DNA from: Delftia acidovorans NBRC 14950
GTDB taxonomy: Bacteria; Pseudomonadota; Gammaproteobacteria; Burkholderiales; Burkholderiaceae_C
Assembly: GCF_001598795.1 (NCBI RefSeq)
Contig: NZ_BCZP01000033.1
Coordinates: 1-32,000, forward strand
Length of the DNA stretch: 32,000 nucleotides
Direction: 5' to 3'
In this document: positions 2,286-20,651 of the stretch, in pieces
Layout of the letters: each line of letters starts with the position of its first letter
Position numbering within the stretch: position 1 is the first letter of the stretch
Notes under the pieces: generated by a model
What the model was told of the DNA's origin: nothing
The model's input: the letters and a program-made list of their open reading frames with translations, nothing else
Database searches by the model: none
Program-made: the position numbers and the translations under genes

Positions 2286-4478
2286 TCAGGCGGCGGCCTT
2301 GACCTTCAGGCGCCAGGCATGCAGCAGGGGCTCGGTGTAGCCACTGGGTTGCTCCTTGCCCTTGAAAACCAGGTCACAGGCGGCCTGGTAGGCCATCGAG
2401 GTGTCGAAGTGGCCGGCCATGGGCTTGTACAGCGCATCGCCCGCGTTCTGCTGGTCGACCACGGCGGCCATGCGCTCGAAGGTCTCGCGGACCTGGGCCT
2501 CGGTCACGATGCCGTGCTGCAGCCAGTTGGCGATGTGCTGGCTGGAGATGCGCAGCGTGGCGCGGTCTTCCATCAGGCCCACGTTGTGGATGTCGGGCAC
2601 CTTGGAGCAGCCCACGCCCTGGTCCACCCAGCGCACCACATAGCCGAGGATGCCCTGGACGTTGTTGTCCAGCTCCTGCTGCTTTTCAGCCGCGCTCCAC
2701 TTGTCTTCCTTGACCACGGGCACCTGCAGCAGGTCGGCCAGGATGGTGGCGCGCTCGGCGTCGGCATTGGTCTGCTCCAGCTGCTTTTGCACTTCGGCCA
2801 CGTTGACCTGGTGGTAGTGCAGGGCGTGCAGCGTGGCGGCCGTGGGCGAGGGCACCCAGGCGGTATTGGCGCCGGCCTTGGGGTGGCCGATCTTTTGCTC
2901 CAGCATGGCCTTCATCAGGTCGGGCATGGCCCACATGCCCTTGCCGATCTGCGCCTTGCCGCGCAGGCCCAGGCCCAGGCCCACGAGCACGTTGCTGCGC
3001 TCATAGGCGGCCAGCCAGGCGCTGCCCTTCATGTCGGCCTTGCGGACCATGGGGCCGGCATACATGGCGGTGTGCATTTCGTCGCCCGTGCGGTCCAGGA
3101 AGCCGGTGTTGATGAAGGCCACGCGCGATGCGGCAGCGGCGATGCAGGCCTTGAGGTTGACGCTGGTGCGGCGCTCCTCGTCCATGATGCCCAGCTTGAC
3201 GGTGTTCTCGGGCAGGCCCAGCACCTTTTCCACGCGGCCGAACAGCTCGCTGGCGAAGGCGGCTTCCGCGGGGCCGTGCATCTTGGGCTTGACGATGTAG
3301 ACGCTGCCCGTGCGCGAGTTGCGGATGCCGTTGGCGCCCAGACCCTTGATGTCGTGGACGGCGATGGCCGTGGTGACCATGGCGTCCAGGATGCCCTCGG
3401 GGATTTCCTTGCCGTTGTCCCAGAGGATGGCCGGGTTGGTCATCAGGTGACCGACATTGCGCACGAACATCAGCGAACGGCCATGCAGCTTGACGGGCTT
3501 GCCATCGGCGCCCGTGTACTCGCGGTCGGCGTTCAGTCCGCGCGTCATGCTCTTGCCGCCCTTGTCGAAGGTTTCGGTCAGCGTGCCCTTGAGGATGCCC
3601 AGCCAGTTGGCATAGCCCACCACCTTGTCTTCGGCATCCACGGCGGCCACGGAGTCTTCCAGGTCCAAGATGGTGGACAGGGCGGCTTCGACCACCACGT
3701 CGGCCACGCCGGCGGCATCGGTCTGGCCGATGGCCGTGGTCTTGTCGATGCGGATGTCGATGTGCAGGCCGTTGTTGAGCAGCAGCACGGAAGAGGGCGC
3801 CGCGGCATCGCCTTGGTAGCCGACGAACTGGGCGGTGTTCTTCAGGCCCGTGGTGCCGCCGCTCTTGAGTGCGACGACCAGCTGGCCAGCTTCCACGCGA
3901 TAGCCGGCGGCATCCTTGTGCGAGCCCGAGGCCAGCGGGGCTGCCTGGTCCAGGAAATCACGTGCGAAGGCGATCACCTTGGCGCCGCGCACGGGGTTGT
4001 AGCCCTTGCCCTTTTCCGCGCCACCGTCTTCGCCGATGGCGTCCGTGCCGTACAGCGCGTCATACAACGAACCCCAGCGCGCGTTGGCGGCGTTCAGCGC
4101 ATAGCGGGCGTTGAGAATGGGCACGACCAGCTGGGGACCGGCCTGGATGGCCAGTTCCGCATCCACATTGGTGGTGGTGGCCTTGGCATCCTTGGGCTGC
4201 TCGACCAGATAGCCGATCTGCGTCAGGAACTGCTGGTAGCCGGCCATGTCGGTGATGGGGCCGGGATGGGCCTTGTGCCAGGTGTCCAGCTCGGTCTGCA
4301 GGCGGTCACGCTCGGCCAGCAGGGCGGCATTGCGAGGAGCCAGATCGTTGACGATCGCGTCGAAGCCTTTCCAGAACGCCTCGGGAGCGACACCGGTGCC
4401 CGGGAGCACTTGTTCATTGATGAAACGGTGCAGCTCTGTAGCGACCTGCAGGCTGTGGGCTTGGGTGCGATCGGTCAT
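2286..4478 (-). CDS. glcB: Malate synthase G
   Basis: 730-aa ORF with full-length similarity to malate synthase G (N-terminus MTDRTQ...[14 protein letters not shown], typical length). Confidence 0.96.
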
Positions 4479-11773: not shown

Positions 11774-13390
11774 TTGAAGCCCGGTCTGTCGCTGCGCGTC
11801 TCCCAGCATCTTTCGCTTACTCCCCAGCTGCAGCAGTCGATACAGCTGCTGCAGCTGTCCACGCTGGAGCTGGCGCAGGAAGTGGAGCAGATGCTGGGCG
11901 ACAACCCCTTCCTGGAGCTGGCGAACGAGGAGGGCGATCACGATGCGGCTGCCGGCACCCGCGAGCCTGCCGCGCCCGGCGCCGAGGCCACGGAGTCCTT
12001 CCAGGAAAGCCGCGCAGACCAGCCTTCGGCGGCGGTGGAGTGGGAGCCCTCGTCGGACGCATCCTCCGGCGATGCCGTGGAGACTTCCGGCACGGCCGAG
12101 TCCCTGAGCTGGGAAGGCGACGGCCAGACCACCTCGGGCAACGATGACCGCGACTGGGGCAGCGATGCGCCCTCCAGCCGCACGCGCGGGCAGGGCGAGG
12201 AAGACGAGGCCGATGCCACCGAACTGGCTCGCAGCGCCGAAAGCCTGACCGACCACCTGCACCGTCAGGCCCTGAGCCTGCGCCTGGGCGAGGTGGACCG
12301 CGCCGCACTGCGCTTTCTGATCGAGAACCTCAACGATGACGGCTACCTGGAAGACCCGCTCGACGAGCTGGCACAGGGCCTGGCGGGCGACGATCTGGAG
12401 GAGTGCGAGGAACTGGTGCACCGCTTCACCGTGGCGCTGCGCCTGCTGCAAAGCCTGGAGCCCGTGGGCGTGGGCGCGCGCGACCTGGCCGAATGCCTGA
12501 CGCTGCAACTGCGCGACCATCTGGCCGATGCCGAGCGCGAAGGCAACGGCAGTGCCGAGGACGAAGACCGGCAGGCCGTGCTGCGCACCGCGCTGGACAT
12601 CTGCGCCCAGCCCATGGACCTGCTTGCGCGGCGCGACCTGCGCAAGCTCGCCAGCCTGTGCGGTGCGCGCGAGGAGCGGCTGCGCGAGGCGCTGGTGCTG
12701 ATCACCCGACTGGAGCCACGCCCGGGCCGGCGCTTTGCCGACGTGCAGCGCCAGATCGTCGTGCCCGACGTCATCGTGCGCCCCGTGCGCAGCGGCGCGG
12801 GCCGCATGGACTTCAGCGTGCAGCTCAACCCCGACGTCATGCCCAAGCTGCGCGTGCACGACATCTATGCCAGCGCGCTGCGCAGCCACAGGGGCAGCGA
12901 AGGCCATGCAGCGCTGCAGCAGCGGCTGCAGGAGGCGCGCTGGTTCATCAAGAACATCCAGCAGCGCTTCGACACCATCCTGCGCGTGTCGCAGGCCATC
13001 GTGGAGCGCCAGAAGAATTTCTTCGTGCATGGCGAGCTGGCCATGCGCCCGCTGGTGCTGCGCGACATTGCCGATGCGCTGGGCCTGCATGAATCCACCA
13101 TCAGCCGCGTGACCACGGCCAAGTACATGGCCACGCCGCAGGGCACCTACGAGCTCAAGTACTTCTTCGGCTCGGGCCTGGGCACCGAGGCCGGTGGCAA
13201 TGCCTCCAGCACTGCCGTGCGCGCGCTGATCAAGCAGTTCGTCGCGGCCGAAGATCCCAAGAAGCCGCTGTCGGACAACCAGCTCGCCGACATGCTCAAG
13301 GAGCAGGGTATCGAATGCGCGCGGCGCACGGTGGCCAAGTACCGCGAGCTGCTCAAGATCCCGCCGACCACGCTGCGCAAGGCGCTGTAG
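11774..13390 (+). CDS. rpoN: RNA polymerase sigma-54 factor
   Basis: N-terminus (M)KPGLSLRVSQHLSLTPQLQQSIQLLQLSTLEL matches RpoN region I. RpoN box ARRTVAKYR near the C-terminus. TTG start with AGGAG 7 nt upstream. Confidence 0.96.
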   Translation: MKPGLSLRVSQHLSLTPQLQQSIQLLQLSTLELAQEVEQMLGDNPFLELANEEGDHDAAAGTREPAAPGAEATESFQESRADQPSAAVEWEPSSDASSGDAVETSGTAESLSWEGDGQTTSGNDDRDWGSDAPSSRTRGQGEEDEADATELARSAESLTDHLHRQALSLRLGEVDRAALRFLIENLNDDGYLEDPLDELAQGLAGDDLEECEELVHRFTVALRLLQSLEPVGVGARDLAECLTLQLRDHLADAEREGNGSAEDEDRQAVLRTALDICAQPMDLLARRDLRKLASLCGAREERLREALVLITRLEPRPGRRFADVQRQIVVPDVIVRPVRSGAGRMDFSVQLNPDVMPKLRVHDIYASALRSHRGSEGHAALQQRLQEARWFIKNIQQRFDTILRVSQAIVERQKNFFVHGELAMRPLVLRDIADALGLHESTISRVTTAKYMATPQGTYELKYFFGSGLGTEAGGNASSTAVRALIKQFVAAEDPKKPLSDNQLADMLKEQGIECARRTVAKYRELLKIPPTTLRKAL

Positions 13391-13428: not shown

Positions 13429-15036
13429 CTATGGCGTTCGACCGGCCACGGCATCCCACTTCAAGCCGAATTTCAGCAGGTACTTGCGCAGGCGGTCGGC
13501 ATCGTTGACCACGCTGCGCTGGGTGCGTGACTGGTCGAACAGACGGCGCCCCGCATCGGACAGCGAAGGTGACTCCCGGCACACGCGCAGCACCGCTTCG
13601 AGCTGCATGCGGTCGAACAGATCCAGCGGCTCCAGCACTTCGGCAGACAGCAGGCTTTGCAGGCTGGCGCCGGCCGGTTGCACGGCATCGCCTCTTTGCC
13701 ACAGCCACTTCAGGCGCTGGATCTCGGCATCGACCAGGGCCGTGGAGATGCGCCCCCCGTCGGCCAGCGTCGCCAGGCGCGTCATGCTGGCCGACAGGTC
13801 GCGGAAGTTGCCGCTCCACAGCGCCTCGGGCGAGCGCGCAAAGCGCAGATAGCGCTCGCGGGCCTCTACGTTGAAGCGCACCATCTGGCCAGTCTCGTCG
13901 GCCGAGCGCGCGAGCAGGTGGTCCATGTTGGGTTCTATGTCCTCGGGGCGCCCGGCCAGGCCCGGCAGCGCGTAGGACCACAGGTTGATGCGCGCGAACA
14001 AATCCTCGCGAAAGCGCCCCTGCGCCACGTCGATGCGCAGGTCGCGGTGCGTGCCGGCGACCAGCTGGAAGTCGCTGCTGACCTCGCGGTCGCTGCCCAT
14101 GGGATAGAAGCGCCTTTCCTCCACCGCCTTGAGCAGCATGGCCTGTTCGTCCAGCCCCAGCTCGCCGATTTCGTCCAGGAACAGCACGCCCTGGTGCGCG
14201 CTGCGCAGCAGGCCGGCGCGGTCGGCCGCAGCGCCCGTGAACGCCCCCTTCTTGTGGCCGAACAGCACCGAAGCCGCTCCATCGCCGCGCAGCGTGGCGC
14301 AATTGACCTCCACGAAGTCGCCCTGCACCTGGTGCCTGGCCTTCTTCAACTCGTACATGCGCCGCGCCAGATGCGACTTGCCCGCGCCCGTGGGACCCGT
14401 GAGCAGGATGGGCGCGCGCGAGCGCACGGCCACGCGCTCGATCTCGTCGATCAGCGCGTTGAACCCGGCATTGCGCGTGGCGATGCCGCTCTTGAGAAAT
14501 TGCACGGCCTCGCTCTGCTCGGCGCCGAAGCGCTGGGCGATCACGTCGTAGCGCGACAGGTCCAGGTCGATCAGCGCATAGCTGCCCGGGTCGCCCATGC
14601 GCTGGCGCCGGGGCGGCGAGGTCTGGGCCAGCACGCCGGGAATGCGGCGCGACTCCACCAGCAGGAACAGGCAGATCTGTGCCACGTGCGTGCCCGTGGT
14701 GATGTGCGTCCAGTACTCCTCGCGCTCGGGGTCGAAGCGGTAGGCCTGCGTCCAGTCGAACAGCCGCGCATAGACCTCGCCGAAATCCCAGGGATCGGCA
14801 ATGTCCATGGGCACGAGGTTCACCTGGGTCTCGGGCGATGCCGTGGCGATGTCGCCCTGCAGCAGCTGCGCCAGGGCCAGATGGGGCGGCGTGTAGAGCA
14901 GCTCCAGCCGCTCCACCACCAGATCCTCGTGCTGCATGAGGGAGAGGGTCGGCCGCCATTTTTCCCAGCGCCCCGCGCCCCTGCCGGAGTCCAGCTGCGT
15001 ACCCAGAAAGCCGATGACGACCTTTTTCTTTTCCAT
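13429..15036 (-). CDS. rtcR: Sigma-54-dependent transcriptional activator RtcR (CARF + AAA+ + HTH)
   Basis: 535 aa. The N-terminal ~185 aa are RtcR/CARF-like (MEKKKVVIGFLGTQLD...). Walker A GPTGAGKS and the sigma54-contact motif GAFTGA are present. Divergent from a sigma54 promoter and an rtcB/rtcA operon. Confidence 0.93.
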   Translation of the reverse strand: MEKKKVVIGFLGTQLDSGRGAGRWEKWRPTLSLMQHEDLVVERLELLYTPPHLALAQLLQGDIATASPETQVNLVPMDIADPWDFGEVYARLFDWTQAYRFDPEREEYWTHITTGTHVAQICLFLLVESRRIPGVLAQTSPPRRQRMGDPGSYALIDLDLSRYDVIAQRFGAEQSEAVQFLKSGIATRNAGFNALIDEIERVAVRSRAPILLTGPTGAGKSHLARRMYELKKARHQVQGDFVEVNCATLRGDGAASVLFGHKKGAFTGAAADRAGLLRSAHQGVLFLDEIGELGLDEQAMLLKAVEERRFYPMGSDREVSSDFQLVAGTHRDLRIDVAQGRFREDLFARINLWSYALPGLAGRPEDIEPNMDHLLARSADETGQMVRFNVEARERYLRFARSPEALWSGNFRDLSASMTRLATLADGGRISTALVDAEIQRLKWLWQRGDAVQPAGASLQSLLSAEVLEPLDLFDRMQLEAVLRVCRESPSLSDAGRRLFDQSRTQRSVVNDADRLRKYLLKFGLKWDAVAGRTP

Positions 15037-15048
15037 GTTTCTGTCTAG

Positions 15049-15142
15049 TTGAATAGCTGAAATTCTAGTTTCTTTGGATCAAATACGAATTCAAGAAAAG
15101 TGTGATTTGAGATTTATTCAAATAAATCAATGGGTTGAAGAA
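15049..15142. promoter_or_regulatory. AT-rich upstream activating region with four TTGAAKA motifs (candidate RtcR sites; also holds the rtcR promoter)
   Basis: TTGAATAG (15049-15056, +). GAATTCAA (15087-15094), which reads TTGAATTC on the minus strand. TTATTCAA (15114-15121), which reads TTGAATAA on the minus strand. TTGAAGAA (15135-15142, +). Near-palindrome ATTTATT-CA-AATAAAT at about 15112-15127. Confidence 0.4.
15125..15137 (+). promoter_or_regulatory. IHF binding site (exact consensus match)
   Basis: AATCAATGGGTTG fits WATCAANNNNTTR exactly. It sits about 30 bp upstream of the -24 element, the usual place for IHF at sigma54 promoters. Confidence 0.6.
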
Positions 15143-15165
15143 TTGTTTGGCGCCTGAGGCCAGGC

Positions 15166-15181
15166 TGGCACGCATCTCGCA
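15166..15181 (+). promoter_or_regulatory. Sigma-54 (-24/-12) promoter of the rtc operon
   Basis: TGGCACGCATCTCGCA versus consensus TGGCACG-N4-TTGCW. GG and GC are at the correct 10-nt spacing, with one deviation (TCGC for TTGC). Expected TSS near 15191. Confidence 0.8.
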
Positions 15182-15320
15182 ATAACCAAGGCATCCAGTG
15201 CAGGCGGTGACCGCTCACAGGCCGGGGTTGGGGCAAAGGCCCGCCCCGCCGGTGCTGGAAGTCCGGGCCCTCAGGGGCTTGTCGATTTCCCGCATGCCGC
15301 ACGCCGCAAGCGCTGGGTAA

Positions 15321-15382
15321 CGGCAAGGTTGTGGAAACCGTCTCGCAAGGGACGCCTGGTTCGACTCCAGGCTTGCCAGCCA
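15321..15382 (+). ncRNA. tRNA-like module A (mini tRNA mimic ending in encoded GCCA)
   Basis: Acceptor-like stem 15322-15327 GGCAAG / 15372-15377 CTTGCC (15321 C opposite 15378 A). T-arm CCTGG (15355-59) / TTCGACT / CCAGG (15367-71). Short stem GTCTC/GGGAC capped by GCAA (15340-15353). Small GTT/AAC hairpin with a GUGGA loop. 3' tail G-CCA at 15379-15382. Confidence 0.45.
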
Positions 15383-15448
15383 CTGGTAGCTCAGTCTGGT
15401 AGAGCACCCTCGCAAGAGGACTGTCGCAGGTTCGATTCCTGTCCACTC
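15383..15448 (+). ncRNA. tRNA-like module B (Y-RNA/YrlA-style tRNA mimic; not a decoding tRNA)
   Basis: TA-GCTC-AGTCTGGTA-GAGC (15387-15405) is a textbook U8-A9 + D-arm. GCAGG-TTCGATT-CCTGT (15426-15442) is a textbook T-arm, with a 5-nt variable region CTGTC. The anticodon arm is replaced by CCTC-GCAA-GAGG (15408-15419, GNRA tetraloop). Only a 3-bp acceptor-like pairing is available (TGG 15384-86 / CCA 15443-45). Confidence 0.65.
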
Positions 15449-15450
15449 TT

Positions 15451-15489
15451 CCGGCCGTAAGGCCGGGCTATTGAAACGGTCGAAAGACC
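15451..15489 (+). ncRNA. Two further GNRA-capped hairpins in the rtc leader
   Basis: CCGGCC-GTAA-GGCCGG (15451-15466) and GGTC-GAAA-GACC (15478-15489). With modules A and B this makes four GNRA tetraloop hairpins within about 150 nt. Confidence 0.45.
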
Positions 15490-15733
15490 ACCCGCCGAAC
15501 GCGGGAGGTGGCCACCGGGTTGCGATGCAGCCCAAGGCCCCCACCCGTCAGCGGCGGCGGCTGTGCCAGGTCCCGGCACGGTCCGCGCCCGCAGCCAGCC
15601 ACGCTGCAACCTGTTTCCAGGGTTGCCGCCACGGCGCACTGCAAGGCCCGGGCCGTGCCCCCTGGAACCCCGCCGCTGCTGTAACGGCACCCCTATTGAT
15701 TGCGGCGAAGACGCCGAACGAGGAGAAGAAGAA

Positions 15734-16873
15734 ATGCTGAAGATCCAACGCATCACCATCAAGAAGAACGAACGCGCCCTGCTGCTGCGCAATGGCGATT
15801 TCGAGCGCGTGCTGCACAGCGGCCGGCACTGGCTGTTTGCCGGCACCGACCAGTTGCGCGTGGAAACCTTTGCCCTGGAGCAGCCCGCCTTCACGCACGG
15901 CCTGGCCGACTACCTGATGGCCCAGGAGCCCGCCGTGGTGGCCGCCGAATTCCTGCGTGTGGAACTGTCCGAGACCGAGGCGGGCCTGCGCAGCGAAAAC
16001 GGCGTGCTGGTCGAGATCCTGCCGCCCGGCACGCGCCGCCTGTACTGGAAGGGACTGGTGGATGTGAGCGTGCAGGTGGTCGACCTGCAGGCCGGCGCCG
16101 AGCTGCCCGCCGCCCTGGCAGCGCGCCTGACCCAGACGCAGCTGCGCCAGCGCAGCGTGTCCGGCCTCAACGGCGTGCTGCAGGTGCAGGTGCTCGCAGG
16201 CCAGTGCGCGCTGCTGACCATCGACGGAAAGGTGGACCGCCTGCTGCAGGCCGGCAGCCATGCGTTCTGGAAGTTCGGCCGCAGCATTGCCGTGGAGCTG
16301 GTGGACCTGCGCCTGCAGGCCGTCGAGGTCTCGGGCCAGGACATCATGACCCGCGACAAGGTCAGCCTGCGCCTGAACCTGAGCGCCACCTATCGCCACA
16401 CCGAGGTTCTGCGCGCCTTTGCCCAGCTGCAAAAGCCTGCCGAGCACCTGTACCGCGAACTGCAGTTCGCACTGCGCGCCGCCGTGGGCACCCGCACGCT
16501 TGATGAGCTGCTGGAGAACAAGACGGTGATCGATGACGTGGTGACCGCGCACATGGCGGCCAAGCTGCAGCCCTTCGGCATGGTGGTGGAGAGTGTGGGC
16601 GTGAAGGACATCGTGCTGCCCGGCGAGATGAAGGCCATCCTGACCCAGGTGGTGCAGGCCGAAAAGCAGGCCCAGGCCAACGTGATCCGCCGCCGCGAGG
16701 AAACGGCCGCCACGCGCTCGCTGCTCAACACGGCCAAGGTCATGGAGGACAACCCCGTGGCCCTGCGCATGAAGGAGCTGGAGACGCTGGAGCGCGTGGC
16801 CGAGCGCATCGACAAGATCTCCGTGTTCGGCGGGCTGGATCAGGTGCTCAACGGGCTGGTGAAGATGCGTTGA
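15734..16873 (+). CDS. SPFH/band-7 (slipin-like) protein with an N-terminal extension and no TM segment
   Basis: ATG 15734 preceded by GAGGAG. The C-terminal ~230 aa are SPFH-like (QDIMTRDKVSLRLNLSATYR..., VGVKDIVLPGEMKAILTQVVQAEKQAQANV). First CDS of the sigma54-driven operon. Confidence 0.85.
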   Translation: MLKIQRITIKKNERALLLRNGDFERVLHSGRHWLFAGTDQLRVETFALEQPAFTHGLADYLMAQEPAVVAAEFLRVELSETEAGLRSENGVLVEILPPGTRRLYWKGLVDVSVQVVDLQAGAELPAALAARLTQTQLRQRSVSGLNGVLQVQVLAGQCALLTIDGKVDRLLQAGSHAFWKFGRSIAVELVDLRLQAVEVSGQDIMTRDKVSLRLNLSATYRHTEVLRAFAQLQKPAEHLYRELQFALRAAVGTRTLDELLENKTVIDDVVTAHMAAKLQPFGMVVESVGVKDIVLPGEMKAILTQVVQAEKQAQANVIRRREETAATRSLLNTAKVMEDNPVALRMKELETLERVAERIDKISVFGGLDQVLNGLVKMR

Positions 16874-16929
16874 CCGGCAGGCTGGTCGGGACACAACGGA
16901 CAACGAAGAAACAAAAGAGAGGTACGGCC

Positions 16930-17427
16930 ATGGCCGCATTCGAAGAACTATGGAGCTATGAGGTGGGCAAGGCGGGCTGGGCGACGTTGAAGTTCAGCAC
17001 GCCCGAGGAGGACCTGGTGTGTGCCGTGTCCTACCTGCATGATTCGCTGGGTGATCTGGCCGCCATGGCGCTGGCCTTGGCCAAGGGCGCGCACCGCGCT
17101 GCCGCCGTGTTCATGGACGAGCCCGGCGAAGTGCACCTGAGCATGGAGGGTGACCGCGACACCCTTTCCTACGAGCTGCGGCAGTACGCGGACTGGGCCA
17201 GCTGGGGCATCACCGCCATGGATGACTATGAAGTGCTGGCCCGTGGGCAGGTGGCCCGCGAGGACGTGGTGCGCAGCGTGTACCGCGTGCTGGACGGTAT
17301 TTATTGCGGCATGGGTGTAGAGGAATACAGAAAGCGCTGGCTGGAGCATGAATTCCCGCTGCGGGACTATCAAAGCCTGGGCAGCGCCATCCGCAAGCGG
17401 GACCTGTCTCGCCTGATGCGTGGATGA
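16930..17427 (+). CDS. Hypothetical protein (165 aa, acidic, no recognisable domain)
   Basis: ATG 16930 with AGAGAGG upstream. Codon usage in line with neighbouring genes. Sits tightly between the SPFH gene and rtcB. Confidence 0.7.
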   Translation: MAAFEELWSYEVGKAGWATLKFSTPEEDLVCAVSYLHDSLGDLAAMALALAKGAHRAAAVFMDEPGEVHLSMEGDRDTLSYELRQYADWASWGITAMDDYEVLARGQVAREDVVRSVYRVLDGIYCGMGVEEYRKRWLEHEFPLRDYQSLGSAIRKRDLSRLMRG

Positions 17428-17486
17428 GCCGCGCGGCAGCAAGACCTAAACAAGACGAACAGACAAGAAGACTGAAGGACAACGCA

Positions 17487-18704
17487 ATGAACTACCTGCA
17501 ACACAACGTGGAAAACGGCGTCCCCATCAAGATGTGGACCAAGGGTGTGCCCGTCGAGGACGAGGCGCGCAAGCAGCTGGAGAACGCCGCGCGCCTGCCC
17601 GTGGTGTTCAAGCATGTCGCGGCCATGCCCGATGTGCACCTGGGCATAGGCGCCACCGTGGGCTCGGTGATCCCGACCATCAAGGCCATCATCCCGGCGG
17701 CCGTGGGCGTGGACATCGGCTGCGGAATGATGGCCGCCAAGACCACGCTGCGCGCCGAGGACCTGCCCGACAACCTGGGCCCGCTGCGCTCGGCGATAGA
17801 GCAGGCCGTGCCGCATGGCTCGGTGCCGCGCCACCGGGGCCGTGATCCCGGCAGCTGGGAAAACCCGCCCGTGTCGGTGGACCAGGTCTGGGCCACGCTG
17901 GCCGATGAGTTCGACCTGCTGTGCGAGCTGCATCCACGCCTGGCCAACACCAACAACCGCAAGCACCTGGGAACGCTGGGCAGCGGCAACCACTTCATCG
18001 AGATCTGCCTGGACGAGGCGGGCTTCGTGTGGTTCATGCTGCACTCGGGCTCGCGCGGCGTGGGCAATGCCATCGGCACCCATTTCATCGAGCTGGCCAA
18101 GAAGGATGCAGAACTCCATCAGCGCAACCTGCCCGACAAGGATCTGGCCTATTTCGAGGAAGGGGCCCGCTACTTTGGCGACTATGTGCGCGGCGTGTCC
18201 TGGGCGCAGAAGTTCGCCATGCGCAACCGCGAGGTGATGATGGCCAACCTCATCGCCACGGTGCGCAAGGTGATCGCCAAGCCCTTCGAGTCGCATGTGG
18301 AGGCGGTGAACTGCCACCACAACTACGTGCAGCAGGAGCGCCATTTCGGGCAGGACGTGTTCATCACCCGCAAGGGCGCGGTGAGCGCGCGGCGCGGCGA
18401 GCTGGGCATCATCCCGGGCAGCATGGGCGCGCGCAGCTACATCGTGCGCGGCCTGGGCAACCCGGAGAGCTTCGAGAGCTGCAGCCACGGTGCGGGCCGC
18501 GTGATGAGCCGGACCAAGGCCAAGAAGATGTTCAGCGTGGAGGACCACATCAAGGCCACCGAGGGCGTGGAATGCCGCAAGGATGCGAATGTGGTGGACG
18601 AGATTCCCATGGCCTACAAGGACATCGATGCGGTCATGGCCGCGCAGCAGGATCTGGTCGAGGTGGTGCACACCCTGAAGCAAGTGGTGTGCGTGAAAGG
18701 GTGA
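17487..18704 (+). CDS. rtcB: RNA-splicing ligase RtcB (3'-phosphate/5'-OH RNA ligase)
   Basis: 405 aa. MNYLQHNVENGVPIKMWTKGVPVEDEARKQL... followed by MPDVHLGIGATVG, GCGMMA, GSGNHFIE, HSGSRG, NCHHNY and SCSHGAGR motifs typical of RtcB. Confidence 0.96.
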   Translation: MNYLQHNVENGVPIKMWTKGVPVEDEARKQLENAARLPVVFKHVAAMPDVHLGIGATVGSVIPTIKAIIPAAVGVDIGCGMMAAKTTLRAEDLPDNLGPLRSAIEQAVPHGSVPRHRGRDPGSWENPPVSVDQVWATLADEFDLLCELHPRLANTNNRKHLGTLGSGNHFIEICLDEAGFVWFMLHSGSRGVGNAIGTHFIELAKKDAELHQRNLPDKDLAYFEEGARYFGDYVRGVSWAQKFAMRNREVMMANLIATVRKVIAKPFESHVEAVNCHHNYVQQERHFGQDVFITRKGAVSARRGELGIIPGSMGARSYIVRGLGNPESFESCSHGAGRVMSRTKAKKMFSVEDHIKATEGVECRKDANVVDEIPMAYKDIDAVMAAQQDLVEVVHTLKQVVCVKG

Positions 18705-18757: not shown

Positions 18758-19579
18758 ATGAGGGAAGAGAAGGTATTGAGCGCGCATCCGGTCTCCGACG
18801 CCATGCGCGCCACGGTGCTGGCCAACCTGGTCGAGGTGGAGCGCAGGCACGAGGTCACGGTGCTGTTTGCCTGCGAGTCGGGCAGCCGCGGCTGGGGCTT
18901 TGCCTCGCCCGACAGCGACTATGACGTGCGCTTCATCTATGTCCACCGCCTGCCCTGGTATCTGACCGTGGCGCCGGGCCGCGATGTCATAGAGCAGCCG
19001 CTCAGCGGCGAGCTCGATGTCAGCGGCTGGGAGCTGCGCAAGGCGCTGGGGCTGCTGCGCGCCTCCAACCCCACGCTGCTTGAATGGCTGCGCTCGCCCG
19101 TGGTCTACCGGCAGGAGCAGCCCTGGGCCGAGCGCCTGCATCTGCTGGCCGAGCAGGGCTTTTCGCCGGTGCGCGGCTACCACCACTACGTGGCCATGGC
19201 GCGCAAGAACCTGCGCGCCCACCTGCAGAGCGATGTCGTGCGCTACAAGAAATACTTCTACGTGCTGCGCCCCTTGCTGGCCGCGCGCTGGATACGCGAG
19301 GGGCGCGGTGCGCCGCCCATGCGCTTTGCACAGCTGGCGGCGGGCACGCTGGAGGATGCAGGCCTGCTGGCCGAGCTCAACGAGCTGCTGGAGCTCAAGA
19401 TGCGCCTGGGCGAGGCCGCCAAGGGGCCGCGCCGGGTGCGCGTCCATGATTTCCTGGAGCGCGAGCTGGCCCATGCCATGGCCCATGCGCCGGATCCGGG
19501 GTACCAGGCCGATGCGGCGCCGCTGGACCGCTATCTGCGGGATGCCGTGGCGCGCTTTGGCGGCAATTGGCGGCAATGA
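18758..19579 (+). CDS. Pol-beta-fold nucleotidyltransferase (RNA-repair-associated predicted NTase family)
   Basis: 273 aa. ACESGSRGWGFASPDSDYDVRF fits the hG[GS]-x9-13-DxD nucleotidyltransferase signature. Located between rtcB and rtcA. Confidence 0.8.
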   Translation: MREEKVLSAHPVSDAMRATVLANLVEVERRHEVTVLFACESGSRGWGFASPDSDYDVRFIYVHRLPWYLTVAPGRDVIEQPLSGELDVSGWELRKALGLLRASNPTLLEWLRSPVVYRQEQPWAERLHLLAEQGFSPVRGYHHYVAMARKNLRAHLQSDVVRYKKYFYVLRPLLAARWIREGRGAPPMRFAQLAAGTLEDAGLLAELNELLELKMRLGEAAKGPRRVRVHDFLERELAHAMAHAPDPGYQADAAPLDRYLRDAVARFGGNWRQ

Positions 19580-19592
19580 ATGAAAGAGAAAA

Positions 19593-20651
19593 ATGAAAGT
19601 GATCGAGATCGACGGCTCCGCCGGGGAGGGCGGAGGCCAGATGCTGCGCAGCGCGCTGGCGCTGTCCATGTGCACGGGCCAGCCCTTTGCCATGCAGCGC
19701 ATCCGTGCCGGGCGCGCCAAGCCGGGCCTGATGCGCCAGCACCTGGCCTGCGTCAATGCCGCCGCCGAAATCTGCGGCGCGCAGATGCAGGGCGCCGAGA
19801 TGAATTCCCAGGCGCTGCAATTTGCGCCGGGGCCGGTGCGTGCGGGCGAGTACCGCTTCGTGATCGCCTCGGCGGGCAGTTGCACCCTGCTGCTGCAGAC
19901 GCTGTGGCCCGCGCTGATGCTGGCCAATGGCGAAAGCCGCCTGACCCTGGGCGGCGGCACCCACAACCCGGCCGCGCCGCCCTTCCACTTCCTGGAGCGC
20001 AGCTATGCGCCGCTGCTGCACAGGCTGGGCGCCCGCTGCGAACTGCGGCTGCGCCGGCTGGGCTTTTATCCGGCCGGTGGCGGCGAGATGGACGTGACGA
20101 TCACGCCGGCAACCAACGGGCTGGTGCCTTTCGATATCACCGAACGCGGCGCGCCCGTGGCCAGCCATGCCGAATGCTTTGCGCCCGCGCTGCCACGCGC
20201 GGTGGCCCAGCGCGAACTGGACCATCTGGGCGAGGCCCTGGGCTGGTCTGGCGAGCAGCTGCAGGTGGCTGCCGTGCGCCAGAACGAGGGGCCGGGCAAC
20301 GCGCTGCTGGCCACGCTGGCCTATGAGCACCTGAGCGAAGTGTTCACGCAGTTCGGCATGAAGGGCGTCAGCGCCGAAAAGGTGGCGCATGACCTGGCGC
20401 GCGAGGTGCGCCGCCACCAGGGCAGCCGGGCCGCGCTGGGCCCGTACCTGGCCGACCAATGGGCCCTGCCGCTGGCGCTGGCCGTCTGGCGCAGCGGGCG
20501 CGCTGCCAGCTACACCTGCACGGAACTGACGCCGCATGCTCGCAGCAATTTCGAGGTGATCGAGCGCTTTGTGCCTGTGCGCTTTGTGCCCGTGCGCCTT
20601 ATCACGGACGCAACGGGCGACGGCTGGCGTGTTTCGCTCTCGCCAGCCTGA
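19593..20651 (+). CDS. rtcA: RNA 3'-terminal phosphate cyclase
   Basis: 352 aa. MKVIEIDGSAGEGGGQMLRSALALSM...RAGRAKPGLMRQHL matches the RtcA N-terminus, including the conserved His region. Confidence 0.95.
   Translation: MKVIEIDGSAGEGGGQMLRSALALSMCTGQPFAMQRIRAGRAKPGLMRQHLACVNAAAEICGAQMQGAEMNSQALQFAPGPVRAGEYRFVIASAGSCTLLLQTLWPALMLANGESRLTLGGGTHNPAAPPFHFLERSYAPLLHRLGARCELRLRRLGFYPAGGGEMDVTITPATNGLVPFDITERGAPVASHAECFAPALPRAVAQRELDHLGEALGWSGEQLQVAAVRQNEGPGNALLATLAYEHLSEVFTQFGMKGVSAEKVAHDLAREVRRHQGSRAALGPYLADQWALPLALAVWRSGRAASYTCTELTPHARSNFEVIERFVPVRFVPVRLITDATGDGWRVSLSPA
20566..20595 (+). repeat. 15-bp in-frame tandem duplication inside rtcA
   Basis: GCTTTGTGCCTGTGC (20566-20580) followed by GCTTTGTGCCCGTGC (20581-20595), one mismatch. 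Encodes RFVPV-RFVPV. Confidence 0.9.

Follow-up and report, generated by a model that had tools for sequence, protein, structure and literature searches.

A tandem tRNA-like RNA in the leader of a Band-7–RtcB RNA-repair operon of Delftia acidovorans

Introduction

Operons for the RNA-repair enzymes RtcB and RtcA are widespread, and their accessory parts are poorly understood. What, in such an operon, could be the role of an RNA that looks like a tRNA, has no anticodon and lies between the promoter and the first gene? The question is raised by a 32,000-nucleotide (nt) stretch of Delftia acidovorans NBRC 14950 (contig NZ_BCZP01000033.1, positions 1 to 32,000 of the forward strand; hereafter the window), which is 99% identical to the corresponding sequence of D. 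tsuruhatensis NBRC 16741. A reading made from the letters alone (the sequence-only reading) had pointed here to a tRNA mimic in the leader of an rtc operon, with a stub in place of the anticodon arm, and had recognised in it the design principle of the tRNA-like domain of bacterial Y RNAs (YrlA).

Comparison with related loci places this element, at positions 15384 to 15445, in a tandem pair of tRNA-like modules and ties it to the first gene of the operon, which encodes a Band-7/SPFH protein. Very probably, the element belongs to the class named b7a-tRNA and acts by its shape. As summarised in a preprint (bioRxiv 10.1101/312249), b7a-tRNA is a non-coding RNA (ncRNA) that Burroughs and Aravind (Nucleic Acids Res 2016) predicted beside Band-7 and RtcB genes in some bacteria, whose likeness to a genuine tRNA is strong and that was thought to be probably redundant with the bacterial Y RNA YrlA.

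Results

The flagged element, which we call unit 2, is made up of the following parts.

15384 to 15445, + strand: unit 2, delimited by its Rfam tRNA score and by covariation
15384 to 15386 and 15443 to 15445, + strand: acceptor stem of 3 base pairs (bp), UGG with CCA
15387 to 15405, + strand: U8-A9 (15387 to 15388) and D-arm (15389 to 15405), TAGCTCAGTCTGGTAGAGC
15408 to 15419, + strand: stub CCUC-GCAA-GAGG in the position of the anticodon arm
15421 to 15425, + strand: variable loop CTGTC, 5 nt
15426 to 15442, + strand: T-arm GCAGG-TTCGATT-CCTGT

Each part that the sequence-only reading had described, namely the D-arm, the 5-nt variable loop, the T-arm, the GCAA-capped stub and about 3 bp of acceptor pairing, was recovered at these positions. 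The set of nucleotides that make tertiary contacts in tRNAs is complete (U8, A14, G18G19, A21, the Y48 partner C15425, the G53-C61 equivalent and a UUCGAUU T-loop) and, with its elbow-forming elements intact and its D- and T-arms canonical, unit 2 is a genuine tRNA mimic, as had been proposed. In the 32-kb window, the T-loop pattern GGTTCGANTCC occurs twice (15358 and 15429) against 0.02 occurrences expected, and the D-arm pattern of unit 2 once against 0.00 expected. The Rfam tRNA model (RF00005) scores 15384 to 15445 at 29.9 bits, with a gathering score of 29 (E = 0.017 over the whole window), in an alignment that spans model positions 5 to 66 only and treats the anticodon region as a deletion. 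The gene finder ARAGORN called no tRNA gene in the whole window, in line with the expectation that such software would reject the element. Where a canonical tRNA has a 7-bp acceptor stem, there are 3 bp in the window and 4 to 5 bp in relatives; where it has a 5-bp anticodon stem and a 7-nt loop, the window copy forms only 4 bp, closed by GCAA. Orthologues of unit 2 reach 35 to 55 bits on the Rfam tRNA model, those with full anticodon arms 40 to 55, and by this measure the window copy appears to be a reduced member of its group.

The picture of a single element was incomplete, as it overlooked a second tRNA-like unit directly 5' of the first, together with conserved domains on either side of the pair. 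This unit 1, identified by covariation and RNAalifold, has the following parts.

15322 to 15382, + strand: unit 1, tRNA-like
15322 to 15327 and 15372 to 15377, + strand: acceptor stem of 6 bp, GGCAAG with CUUGCC
15328 to 15338, + strand: small D-like hairpin with a GG loop
15339 to 15354, + strand: GCAA-capped stub
15355 to 15371, + strand: T-arm CCUGG-UUCGACU-CCAGG
15378 to 15382, + strand: tail AGCCA

Unit 2 starts one nucleotide beyond the AGCCA tail, so that two tRNA-like modules stand in tandem, the flagged element being the second of them; both carry GNRA stubs instead of anticodon arms in this genome. The acceptor, D-like, stub and T helices of unit 1 all covary, and all four are predicted by RNAalifold. 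Acceptor stem 1 measures 6 to 7 bp in most of 73 loci and is built from very different sequences (GGCAAG/CUUGCC, GGUGAUG/CAUCACC, GGGCGGC/GCCGCCC and GAACGAU/AUCGUUC among them), with NCCA directly 3' of the stem in 63 of the 73. Unit 1 has a stub in every group examined, and in loci whose Band-7 protein is less than 55% identical to that of the window it forms a full cloverleaf with a GNRA stub. Acceptor stem 2 reads UGG/CCA or UGGA/UCCA in the Burkholderiales loci aligned, UUCGA/UCGAA in Burkholderia and AGGA/UCCU in Photobacterium; because the sequence covaries in the latter two, it is a true short helix and not a CCA-specific motif, and a sequence-specific, T-box-like role of UGG/CCA was rejected on the same grounds.

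The conservation of the pair was assessed in several sets of loci. Homologue searches with the Band-7 protein gave relatives of at least 76% identity, and a Band-7-seeded scan covered 80 loci from Comamonadaceae, Sphaerotilaceae and other Burkholderiales; loci farther away came from tblastn searches of plasmid and chromid records and from a metagenome scan of 119 loci in which the RNA junction pattern alone served as the seed. The element was found at the same position in about 190 related loci, with Band-7 identities of 30 to 100%, and in almost all of the 80 genome loci the T-arm of unit 1 and the D- and T-arms of unit 2 lie 300 to 400 nt 5' of the Band-7 gene.

Covariation was counted on MAFFT alignments, and RNAalifold was run separately. 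Across 32 RtcR-linked Comamonadaceae loci, 95.5% of the alignment cells in the proposed helices are paired, compared with a mean of 87.1% after shuffling and 30 to 49% with slid partners. Double changes occur in 19 of 41 pairs, and none of 500 shuffles came up to these values; the changes include three pairs in acceptor stem 1, two in the D-like hairpin, two in each T stem and all four pairs of the unit 2 stub. The D-arm of unit 2 is invariant in these loci. Of the signs that the sequence-only reading had asked for, conservation is thus seen in the D-arm and compensatory change in the T-arm and the GCAA stem. RNAalifold, run unguided, arrives at the same fold with both cloverleaf-like units. 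A set of 41 loci farther away gives 90% paired cells, with double changes in 28 of 37 pairs, including all five of the anticodon stem.

The anticodon itself behaves very differently. In these farther loci unit 2 is recognised by ARAGORN as a tRNA, and the anticodon read from it differs in nearly every genome: the same 41 relatives, all with a 7-nt loop, carry 19 different triplets, with U33 in 28 and A37 in 30. A full anticodon arm is present in 88 of the 119 metagenome loci and a stub in about 20, the stub type being almost confined to RtcR-linked loci with a Band-7 protein 83 to 99% identical to that of the window. The Burkholderia unit 2 likewise has a stub, GCCGGC-AAA-GCCGGC, closed by a triloop. 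Because 19 triplets are found in 41 relatives and stubs occur in both the Delftia/Acidovorax clade and Burkholderia, the anticodon is dispensable and under no selection, the constrained parts being the elbow and the acceptor/T helices. The stub of the window is a derived state specific to the Delftia/Acidovorax clade.

The genes around the RNA are as follows.

13429 to 15036, − strand: rtcR, sigma54-dependent activator with an RtcR/CARF N-terminal domain (Pfam RtcR, 1.1e-80, and Sigma54_activat)
15734 to 16873, + strand: Band-7/SPFH (slipin-type) protein, first coding sequence (Pfam Band_7, 2e-31)
16870 to 17427, + strand: 185-amino-acid (aa) protein that matches nothing in Pfam or NCBIfam; its slot, between Band-7 and RtcB, is variable
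17424 to 18704, + strand: RtcB RNA ligase (Pfam RtcB, 1.9e-126)
18758 to 19579, + strand: RlaP, RNA-repair-pathway nucleotidyltransferase of the pol-beta family (Pfam RlaP, 3.7e-98)
19593 to 20651, + strand: RtcA RNA 3'-phosphate cyclase (Pfam RTC, 4.6e-74, and RTC_insert)

The first coding sequence, whose nature the sequence-only reading had missed, proved to be the constant partner of the RNA. In the window it begins 288 nt beyond the end of unit 2 on the same strand. A Band-7 homologue, 30 to 100% identical, lies downstream in all 90 of the RNA-seeded metagenome loci that offer at least 900 nt of downstream sequence, and starts 250 to 600 nt from the RNA in 82 of them. Even in Photobacterium, where the Band-7 protein is 37% identical, two adjacent tRNA-like elements with Rfam tRNA scores of 54 and 46 bits lie 180 nt upstream of the gene. 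RtcB follows in most related loci. Upstream of the RNA the context changes: RtcR with a sigma54 motif, an HNH gene preceded by arrays of 2 to 22 tRNA genes on the same strand, or neither. The link to RtcR is therefore not essential, as the same RNA is found 5' of Band-7 in loci that lack RtcR.

With a Band-7 gene downstream in 90 of 90 loci of sufficient length, the element matches the predicted b7a-tRNA class. The features of that class given in the preprint summary (bioRxiv 10.1101/312249), a position adjoining a Band-7/SPFH gene and RtcB in the neighbourhood, are both found here. Since the class was already known as a prediction of 2016, the design is not new. Rfam 15 contains no family for this RNA.

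Several observations concern the loci of relatives. Where RtcR is missing, the RNA–Band-7–RtcB module stands after an HNH endonuclease gene, itself placed after 2 to 22 same-strand tRNA genes, among which Glu-UUC, Asp-GUC, His-GUG, Leu-CAG, Gln-UUG and Arg-ACG recur (loci L035 to L080, for example L038 810-1846, L039 825-1883 and L043 801-1875, and metagenome loci L201, L242 and L216). In Anabaena, TrcR represses the trn tRNA-array operon together with rtcB, a slipin gene and HNH endonucleases, and translational stress induces all of them (PMC10272220); the types of gene that are co-regulated there are physically linked in these loci. Such linkage of the module to tRNA arrays and HNH genes suggests one shared response in which tRNAs would be both replaced and repaired.

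A third large group (L147, L148, L149 and about 45 other metagenome loci, Band-7 identity 35 to 50%) has neither RtcR nor HNH within reach. Here unit 1 makes a complete cloverleaf that carries ACCA and a GNRA stub, unit 2 often has a CUGUUAA loop (anticodon GUU), and the leaders are long, GC-rich and free of the 5'- and 3'-domain motifs described below for the group of the window. In E. coli STEC639 (L140, CP061233.1, 4683-4830), a slipin gene and an RlaP-like nucleotidyltransferase gene form a locus with a near-identical sigma54 motif, TGGCACGcttcTCGCA, and no adjacent rtcR, whose leader holds a single T-arm-like hairpin, AUGGGUUCGAUUCCCAC, and resembles a cut-down form of the RNA. In some loci of Acidovorax and Ideonella, an extra conserved non-coding stretch of about 230 to 270 nt, absent from the window, lies just 3' of the Band-7 stop codon (L024 4162-4394; L033 about 4160-4392; also L020 and L025, T-loop at about 4369). 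The two ends of this stretch together form a 7-bp acceptor stem (GGGCGCG/CGCGUCC) with a T-arm and ACCA, a tmRNA-like arrangement that scores only 16.5 bits on the Rfam tmRNA model (E = 0.011). A search of viral contigs for the junction of the two units, CCACTGG(N)TAGCTCAG, returned 59 matches, all of which were chance matches in coding sequence with neither T-arms nor Band-7; by this pattern, the RNA was not found in phages.

The pair sits at the centre of a larger conserved leader, for which we identified the following features.

15166 to 15181, + strand: sigma54-type promoter motif TGGCACGcatcTCGCA, from sequence reading and conservation, with a putative start site
15194 to 15317, + strand: 5' leader domain, a closed, covarying multi-helix structure (RNAalifold on 15 loci: 43 pairs, 22 compensatory)
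15451 to 15466, + strand: GUAA-capped hairpin CCGGCC-GUAA-GGCCGG, conserved, covarying and predicted by RNAalifold
15478 to 15489, + strand: hairpin GGUC-GAAA-GACC, in the 20-nt bin where conservation of the leader is highest (99% identity)
15494 to 15688, + strand: 3' leader domain (RNAalifold), closed by GCCG 15494 to 15497 with CGGC 15685 to 15688

A sigma54-type motif lies about 190 nt 5' of T-loop 1 in 33 of 34 RtcR-linked loci (L026 gave no such motif), and the loci that lack RtcR do not have it. The position that the sequence-only reading gave the element, in the leader of an rtc operon of the sigma54/RtcR type between the promoter motif and the first coding sequence, is supported. No sigma70-like promoter site was found in 14900 to 15800, and no terminator-like site on the + strand between the sigma54 motif and the Band-7 start, the sole match being on the − strand. 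From the promoter to about 15696 the sequence is 70 to 99% conserved across RtcR-linked loci, and the leader folds far better than shuffled sequence (z = −4.4). In the 3' domain, which stops some 45 nt short of the start codon, 25 of 49 pairs show compensatory change in 16 loci of both context types. Loci with and without RtcR share the GGUC-GAAA-GACC hairpin. Core motifs of the 5' domain also occur in loci without RtcR, where they lie between the HNH gene and unit 1; in the metagenome set they are present in 36 of 36 loci with a Band-7 identity of at least 70% and are mostly absent below 55%. An RNA of about 500 nt would be kept 5' of Band-7 under either upstream context, RtcR with sigma54 or a tRNA array with HNH. 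Some candidate structures were discarded. A 7-way junction closed by CGGCA/UGUCG, with a CCAG-CCA-CUGG hairpin, came from the minimum free energy (MFE) fold of the single sequence only, and comparative data give other pairings; a weak match of the 5' domain to Rfam asX1 (21 bits, E = 0.86) is absent in eight orthologous loci and was treated as due to chance, as were Rfam matches to mir-5132, Pab19 and CRISPR-DR16 in the window.

Turning to the proteins, an AlphaFold 2 model of the Band-7 protein has a pLDDT of 69.6, rising to about 80 in its all-beta N-terminal region of some 125 residues, with no obvious membrane segment. The model matches stomatin, HflK/C and prohibitin, as well as the major vault protein over about 470 alignment columns. 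SPFH proteins oligomerise into rings or cages, and the model would fit a soluble cage or ring scaffold.

The variable slot between Band-7 and RtcB is elsewhere occupied by unrelated proteins of 245 to 304 aa that belong to no family, by a ClpP-like SDH-type serine protease (PF01972), the classic partner in stomatin operons, or by nothing (examples of the slot are L003 4168-4914, L002 4137-5051, L039 4108-5103 and L061 4157-5242). The regulator, transcribed divergently from the Band-7–RtcB operon, matches the NCBIfam equivalog RNA_repair_RtcR at 824 bits, the cut-off being 650. It adjoins the sigma54 gene rpoN (11774 to 13390, + strand), the two converging at their ends, and lptA-like and lptB genes precede rpoN. 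In Acidovorax sp. CF316, an RNase P RNA gene (RNaseP_bact_a, 186 bits; L024 202-638, − strand) lies just past rtcR; this is probably coincidental, although RNase P would be the enzyme to cleave the tRNA-like units.

Discussion

How, then, might the pair act? In Salmonella, RtcR is activated in response to damaged tRNA (PMC7790460). By homology, RtcR would activate the promoter in the window on damaged tRNA, giving a transcript in which the three-domain leader of about 500 nt, with the tRNA-like pair at its centre, precedes Band-7, the variable gene, RtcB, RlaP and RtcA. Because the elbow and the acceptor/T helices are invariant and the anticodon loop is unconstrained, the RNA would act through tRNA shape and not through decoding. 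Its partner would be the Band-7/SPFH protein of the same operon, which it would join while still part of the leader or once tRNA-processing enzymes had cut it out, and the resulting ribonucleoprotein (RNP) would serve to organise the enzymes RtcB, RlaP and RtcA on tRNAs that are damaged. This role would parallel that of Y RNA and Ro, which have been proposed to organise repair enzymes in rsr-yrlBA-rtcBA operons. The starting points are direct observations, namely the fold and its conservation, the dispensable anticodon, the co-orientation and strict linkage with the Band-7–RtcB operon, and the conserved sigma54 motif; from them we infer Band-7 binding, processing and a role as scaffold. To this explanation as a whole we assign a probability of roughly 0.55, a value that blends our confidence in class and shape with that in the Band-7 mechanism. 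The latter, in which a tRNA mimic serves by its shape as the RNP cofactor through which Band-7 organises the three enzymes, is the tentative part, and we put its chances a little under even. A bolder form of the same idea is that the pair is the core of a three-domain RNA of about 500 nt with five GNRA-capped hairpins, not found described in the literature searched, which would join a soluble, vault-like SPFH cage in an RNP devoted to the repair or quality control of tRNAs, and from which the acceptor/T minihelix of unit 1, with NCCA at its end, would be excised as a stable small RNA; this we regard as speculative, and as less probable than the simpler cofactor role.

A number of points weigh against the favoured explanation. 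The Band-7 model is of moderate confidence (pLDDT 69.6), and a vault-like fold does not show RNA binding. With an acceptor stem of 3 to 5 bp, unit 2 is probably a poor substrate for RNase P. The Band-7 locus of E. coli STEC639 pairs its sigma54 motif with a reduced element of one T-arm only, and in Subdoligranulum no tRNA-like element was found near the Band-7 gene. A cis-acting role would agree just as well with the position in the 5' untranslated region (UTR) and with the two domains that flank the pair. According to the preprint summary, b7a-tRNA was still without experimental validation in 2018 (bioRxiv 10.1101/312249), and it is mentioned in no later paper found in the literature searched.

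The first alternative is that cis-acting role, in which the pair and its flanking domains form a 5' UTR sensor that tunes the translation or stability of the Band-7–RtcB mRNA, the ligand being RtcB, RtcA, RlaP or the Band-7 protein, or else damaged or uncharged tRNA. It is suggested by an RNA that invariably lies in the 5' UTR, 180 to 300 nt before the Band-7 start codon, by some 500 structured and conserved nucleotides reaching from the promoter to near the ribosome-binding site (RBS), with the 3' domain ending so close to the start codon, and by the failure to find either a separate promoter or a + strand terminator-like site. However, neither a terminator/antiterminator pair nor an RBS-sequestering helix is predicted, the RBS region is poorly conserved, and the same RNA is kept under different regulatory regimes. 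A cis-regulatory leader, which would be compatible with an RNP role, is in our judgement unlikely to be the explanation.

Somewhat more doubtful is the proposal that the units are processing punctuation, cut by RNase P and 3'-end enzymes to free the Band-7–RtcB mRNA from the upstream part of the transcript (the 5' domain, or the tRNA array and HNH mRNA) and to set its 5' end. The tRNA-like module of MALAT1, mascRNA, works as a processing site of this kind. Unit 1, with its 6- to 7-bp acceptor stem stacked on a 5-bp T stem to give an 11- to 12-bp helix, and with NCCA in most loci, is by its anatomy a plausible substrate of RNase P and tRNA 3'-end processing, and in one orthologue (L037) it weakly matches the mascRNA-menRNA model, at 28.5 bits against a gathering score of 42.5. 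Up to 22 same-strand tRNA genes lie upstream in related loci. In addition, the YrlA of M. smegmatis is cut by RNase P (bioRxiv 10.1101/312249). A processing signal, however, needs neither two units nor an invariant unit 2 D-arm nor conserved 5' and 3' domains, and the short acceptor stem of unit 2 would be sub-optimal for RNase P. Processing is nevertheless compatible with the RNP explanation, and is probably one of its steps.

It is improbable that the RNA is a decoy or bait, which would titrate tRNA-targeting nucleases (colicins, CdiA-CT toxins or anticodon nucleases), or be cut by them, and so protect real tRNAs or generate a signal. The loop of unit 2 is hypervariable among close relatives and still keeps U33 and A37 in most of the 41 loci that have it, and a role as competitive inhibitor has been suggested for YrlA (PMC7790460). 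In the window, the Acidovorax/Delftia clade and Burkholderia, though, a tetraloop or triloop stub leaves an anticodon nuclease nothing to cut, unit 1 has a stub throughout, and a lack of constraint explains the variability of the loop equally well. These three readings are partly compatible with the favoured explanation; the two that follow are effectively excluded.

The parallel with YrlA drawn by the sequence-only reading is apt as an analogy and does not extend to membership of the family. Of the two covariance models that it had suggested as a check, the tRNA model passed its threshold and the YrlA model (RF02553) did not, giving 29.4 bits at 15328 to 15433 (E = 3e-4 locally) against a gathering score of 69. 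Sub-threshold matches recur in orthologues, at 24 to 36 bits, and the order of T-arm, acceptor-like segment and D-arm is that of YrlA; what produces the match is T-arm 1 with the D-arm of unit 2 coming next after it. False YrlA matches of this type, on tandem or dimeric tRNAs, were the subject of a warning by Chen et al. (2014; PMC4201824), and the same weak match is seen between adjacent genuine tRNAs in L057 (1248-1357). Furthermore, the outer YrlA stems, equivalent to the Ro-binding helix, align as non-pairs, and the segment after T-arm 1 pairs, with covariation, with the upstream 15322 to 15327, forming an open acceptor stem and no closed hairpin. Whereas a YrlA would be expected to have an rsr (TROVE) gene within about 4 kb, there is no TROVE/Rsr domain among the 27 likely genes of the 32-kb window, which agrees with the earlier remark that a Ro60/Rsr gene is missing there. 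A divergent YrlA-type Y RNA that has lost its Ro partner is accordingly very improbable. As for a decayed tRNA gene in neutral drift, for which the ARAGORN rejection, the truncated acceptor stem and the missing anticodon might speak, it is refuted by RNAalifold and by the covariation in 32 and 41 loci, the same position being held in about 190 loci over Band-7 identities of 30 to 100%, with compensatory changes in every variable stem, even the replacement stub, and invariant tertiary-contact nucleotides, and its probability is negligible.

The preferred reading, a b7a-tRNA that acts by shape with its Band-7 partner, would make b7a-tRNA the Band-7 counterpart of the Ro–Y RNA pair. The abstract of Burroughs and Aravind reportedly describes Rot/TROVE and SPFH/Band-7 modules paired with YRNAs and a “novel tRNA-like molecule”. 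To this the present analysis adds exact boundaries, a secondary structure supported by covariation, the tandem unit, the flanking domains, the clade-specific loss of the anticodon loop and the alternative genomic contexts, all of which make the predicted RNA directly testable.

Comparison with known systems

Like a canonical tRNA (RF00005), unit 2 has a D-arm, a variable loop, a T-arm and equivalents of the tertiary-contact nucleotides, including T54-Psi55-C56. It differs in its 3-bp acceptor stem, in the missing 5-bp/7-nt anticodon arm and in its place within an mRNA leader, and its relatives share no conserved anticodon.

The mascRNA and MEN-beta modules (RF01684) and the tRNA-like domain of tmRNA are found within longer transcripts and are recognised by tRNA-processing enzymes. 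The present pair shares with them a reduced fold, an acceptor/T minihelix, a short stub and CCA; unlike them, it is a bacterial tandem located in a 5' leader and not at a 3' end, and is known here from sequence.

The vault is an RNP of the major vault protein, which has an SPFH-like shoulder domain, and small non-coding vault RNAs. Here too, an SPFH-fold protein, of a kind that forms a cage in the vault, is paired with a small structured ncRNA, although the fold similarity of Band-7 comes from a model of moderate confidence, and a bacterial cage that binds RNA is known only as a proposal.

With b7a-tRNA as summarised in the preprint (bioRxiv 10.1101/312249), the element has in common that it is a tRNA-like ncRNA beside Band-7/SPFH and RtcB, in parallel to YrlA. 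Set against that summary, rather than against the original alignments of 2016, it is distinguished by its 4-bp GCAA stub, its 3-bp acceptor stem, its tandem arrangement and its place within a three-domain leader of about 500 nt.

YrlA, finally, is also a tRNA mimic that keeps the D/T elbow nucleotides intact, has no anticodon loop and belongs to an RtcR-controlled RtcB operon, and it too has been proposed as the RNA cofactor of a scaffold protein that forms a ring or cage. In contrast to YrlA, the RNA of the window has neither a Ro-binding helix nor an Rsr gene, its acceptor stem is open, its two units stand in tandem in the ordinary order and are not circularly permuted, and its partner would be Band-7 in place of Ro60.

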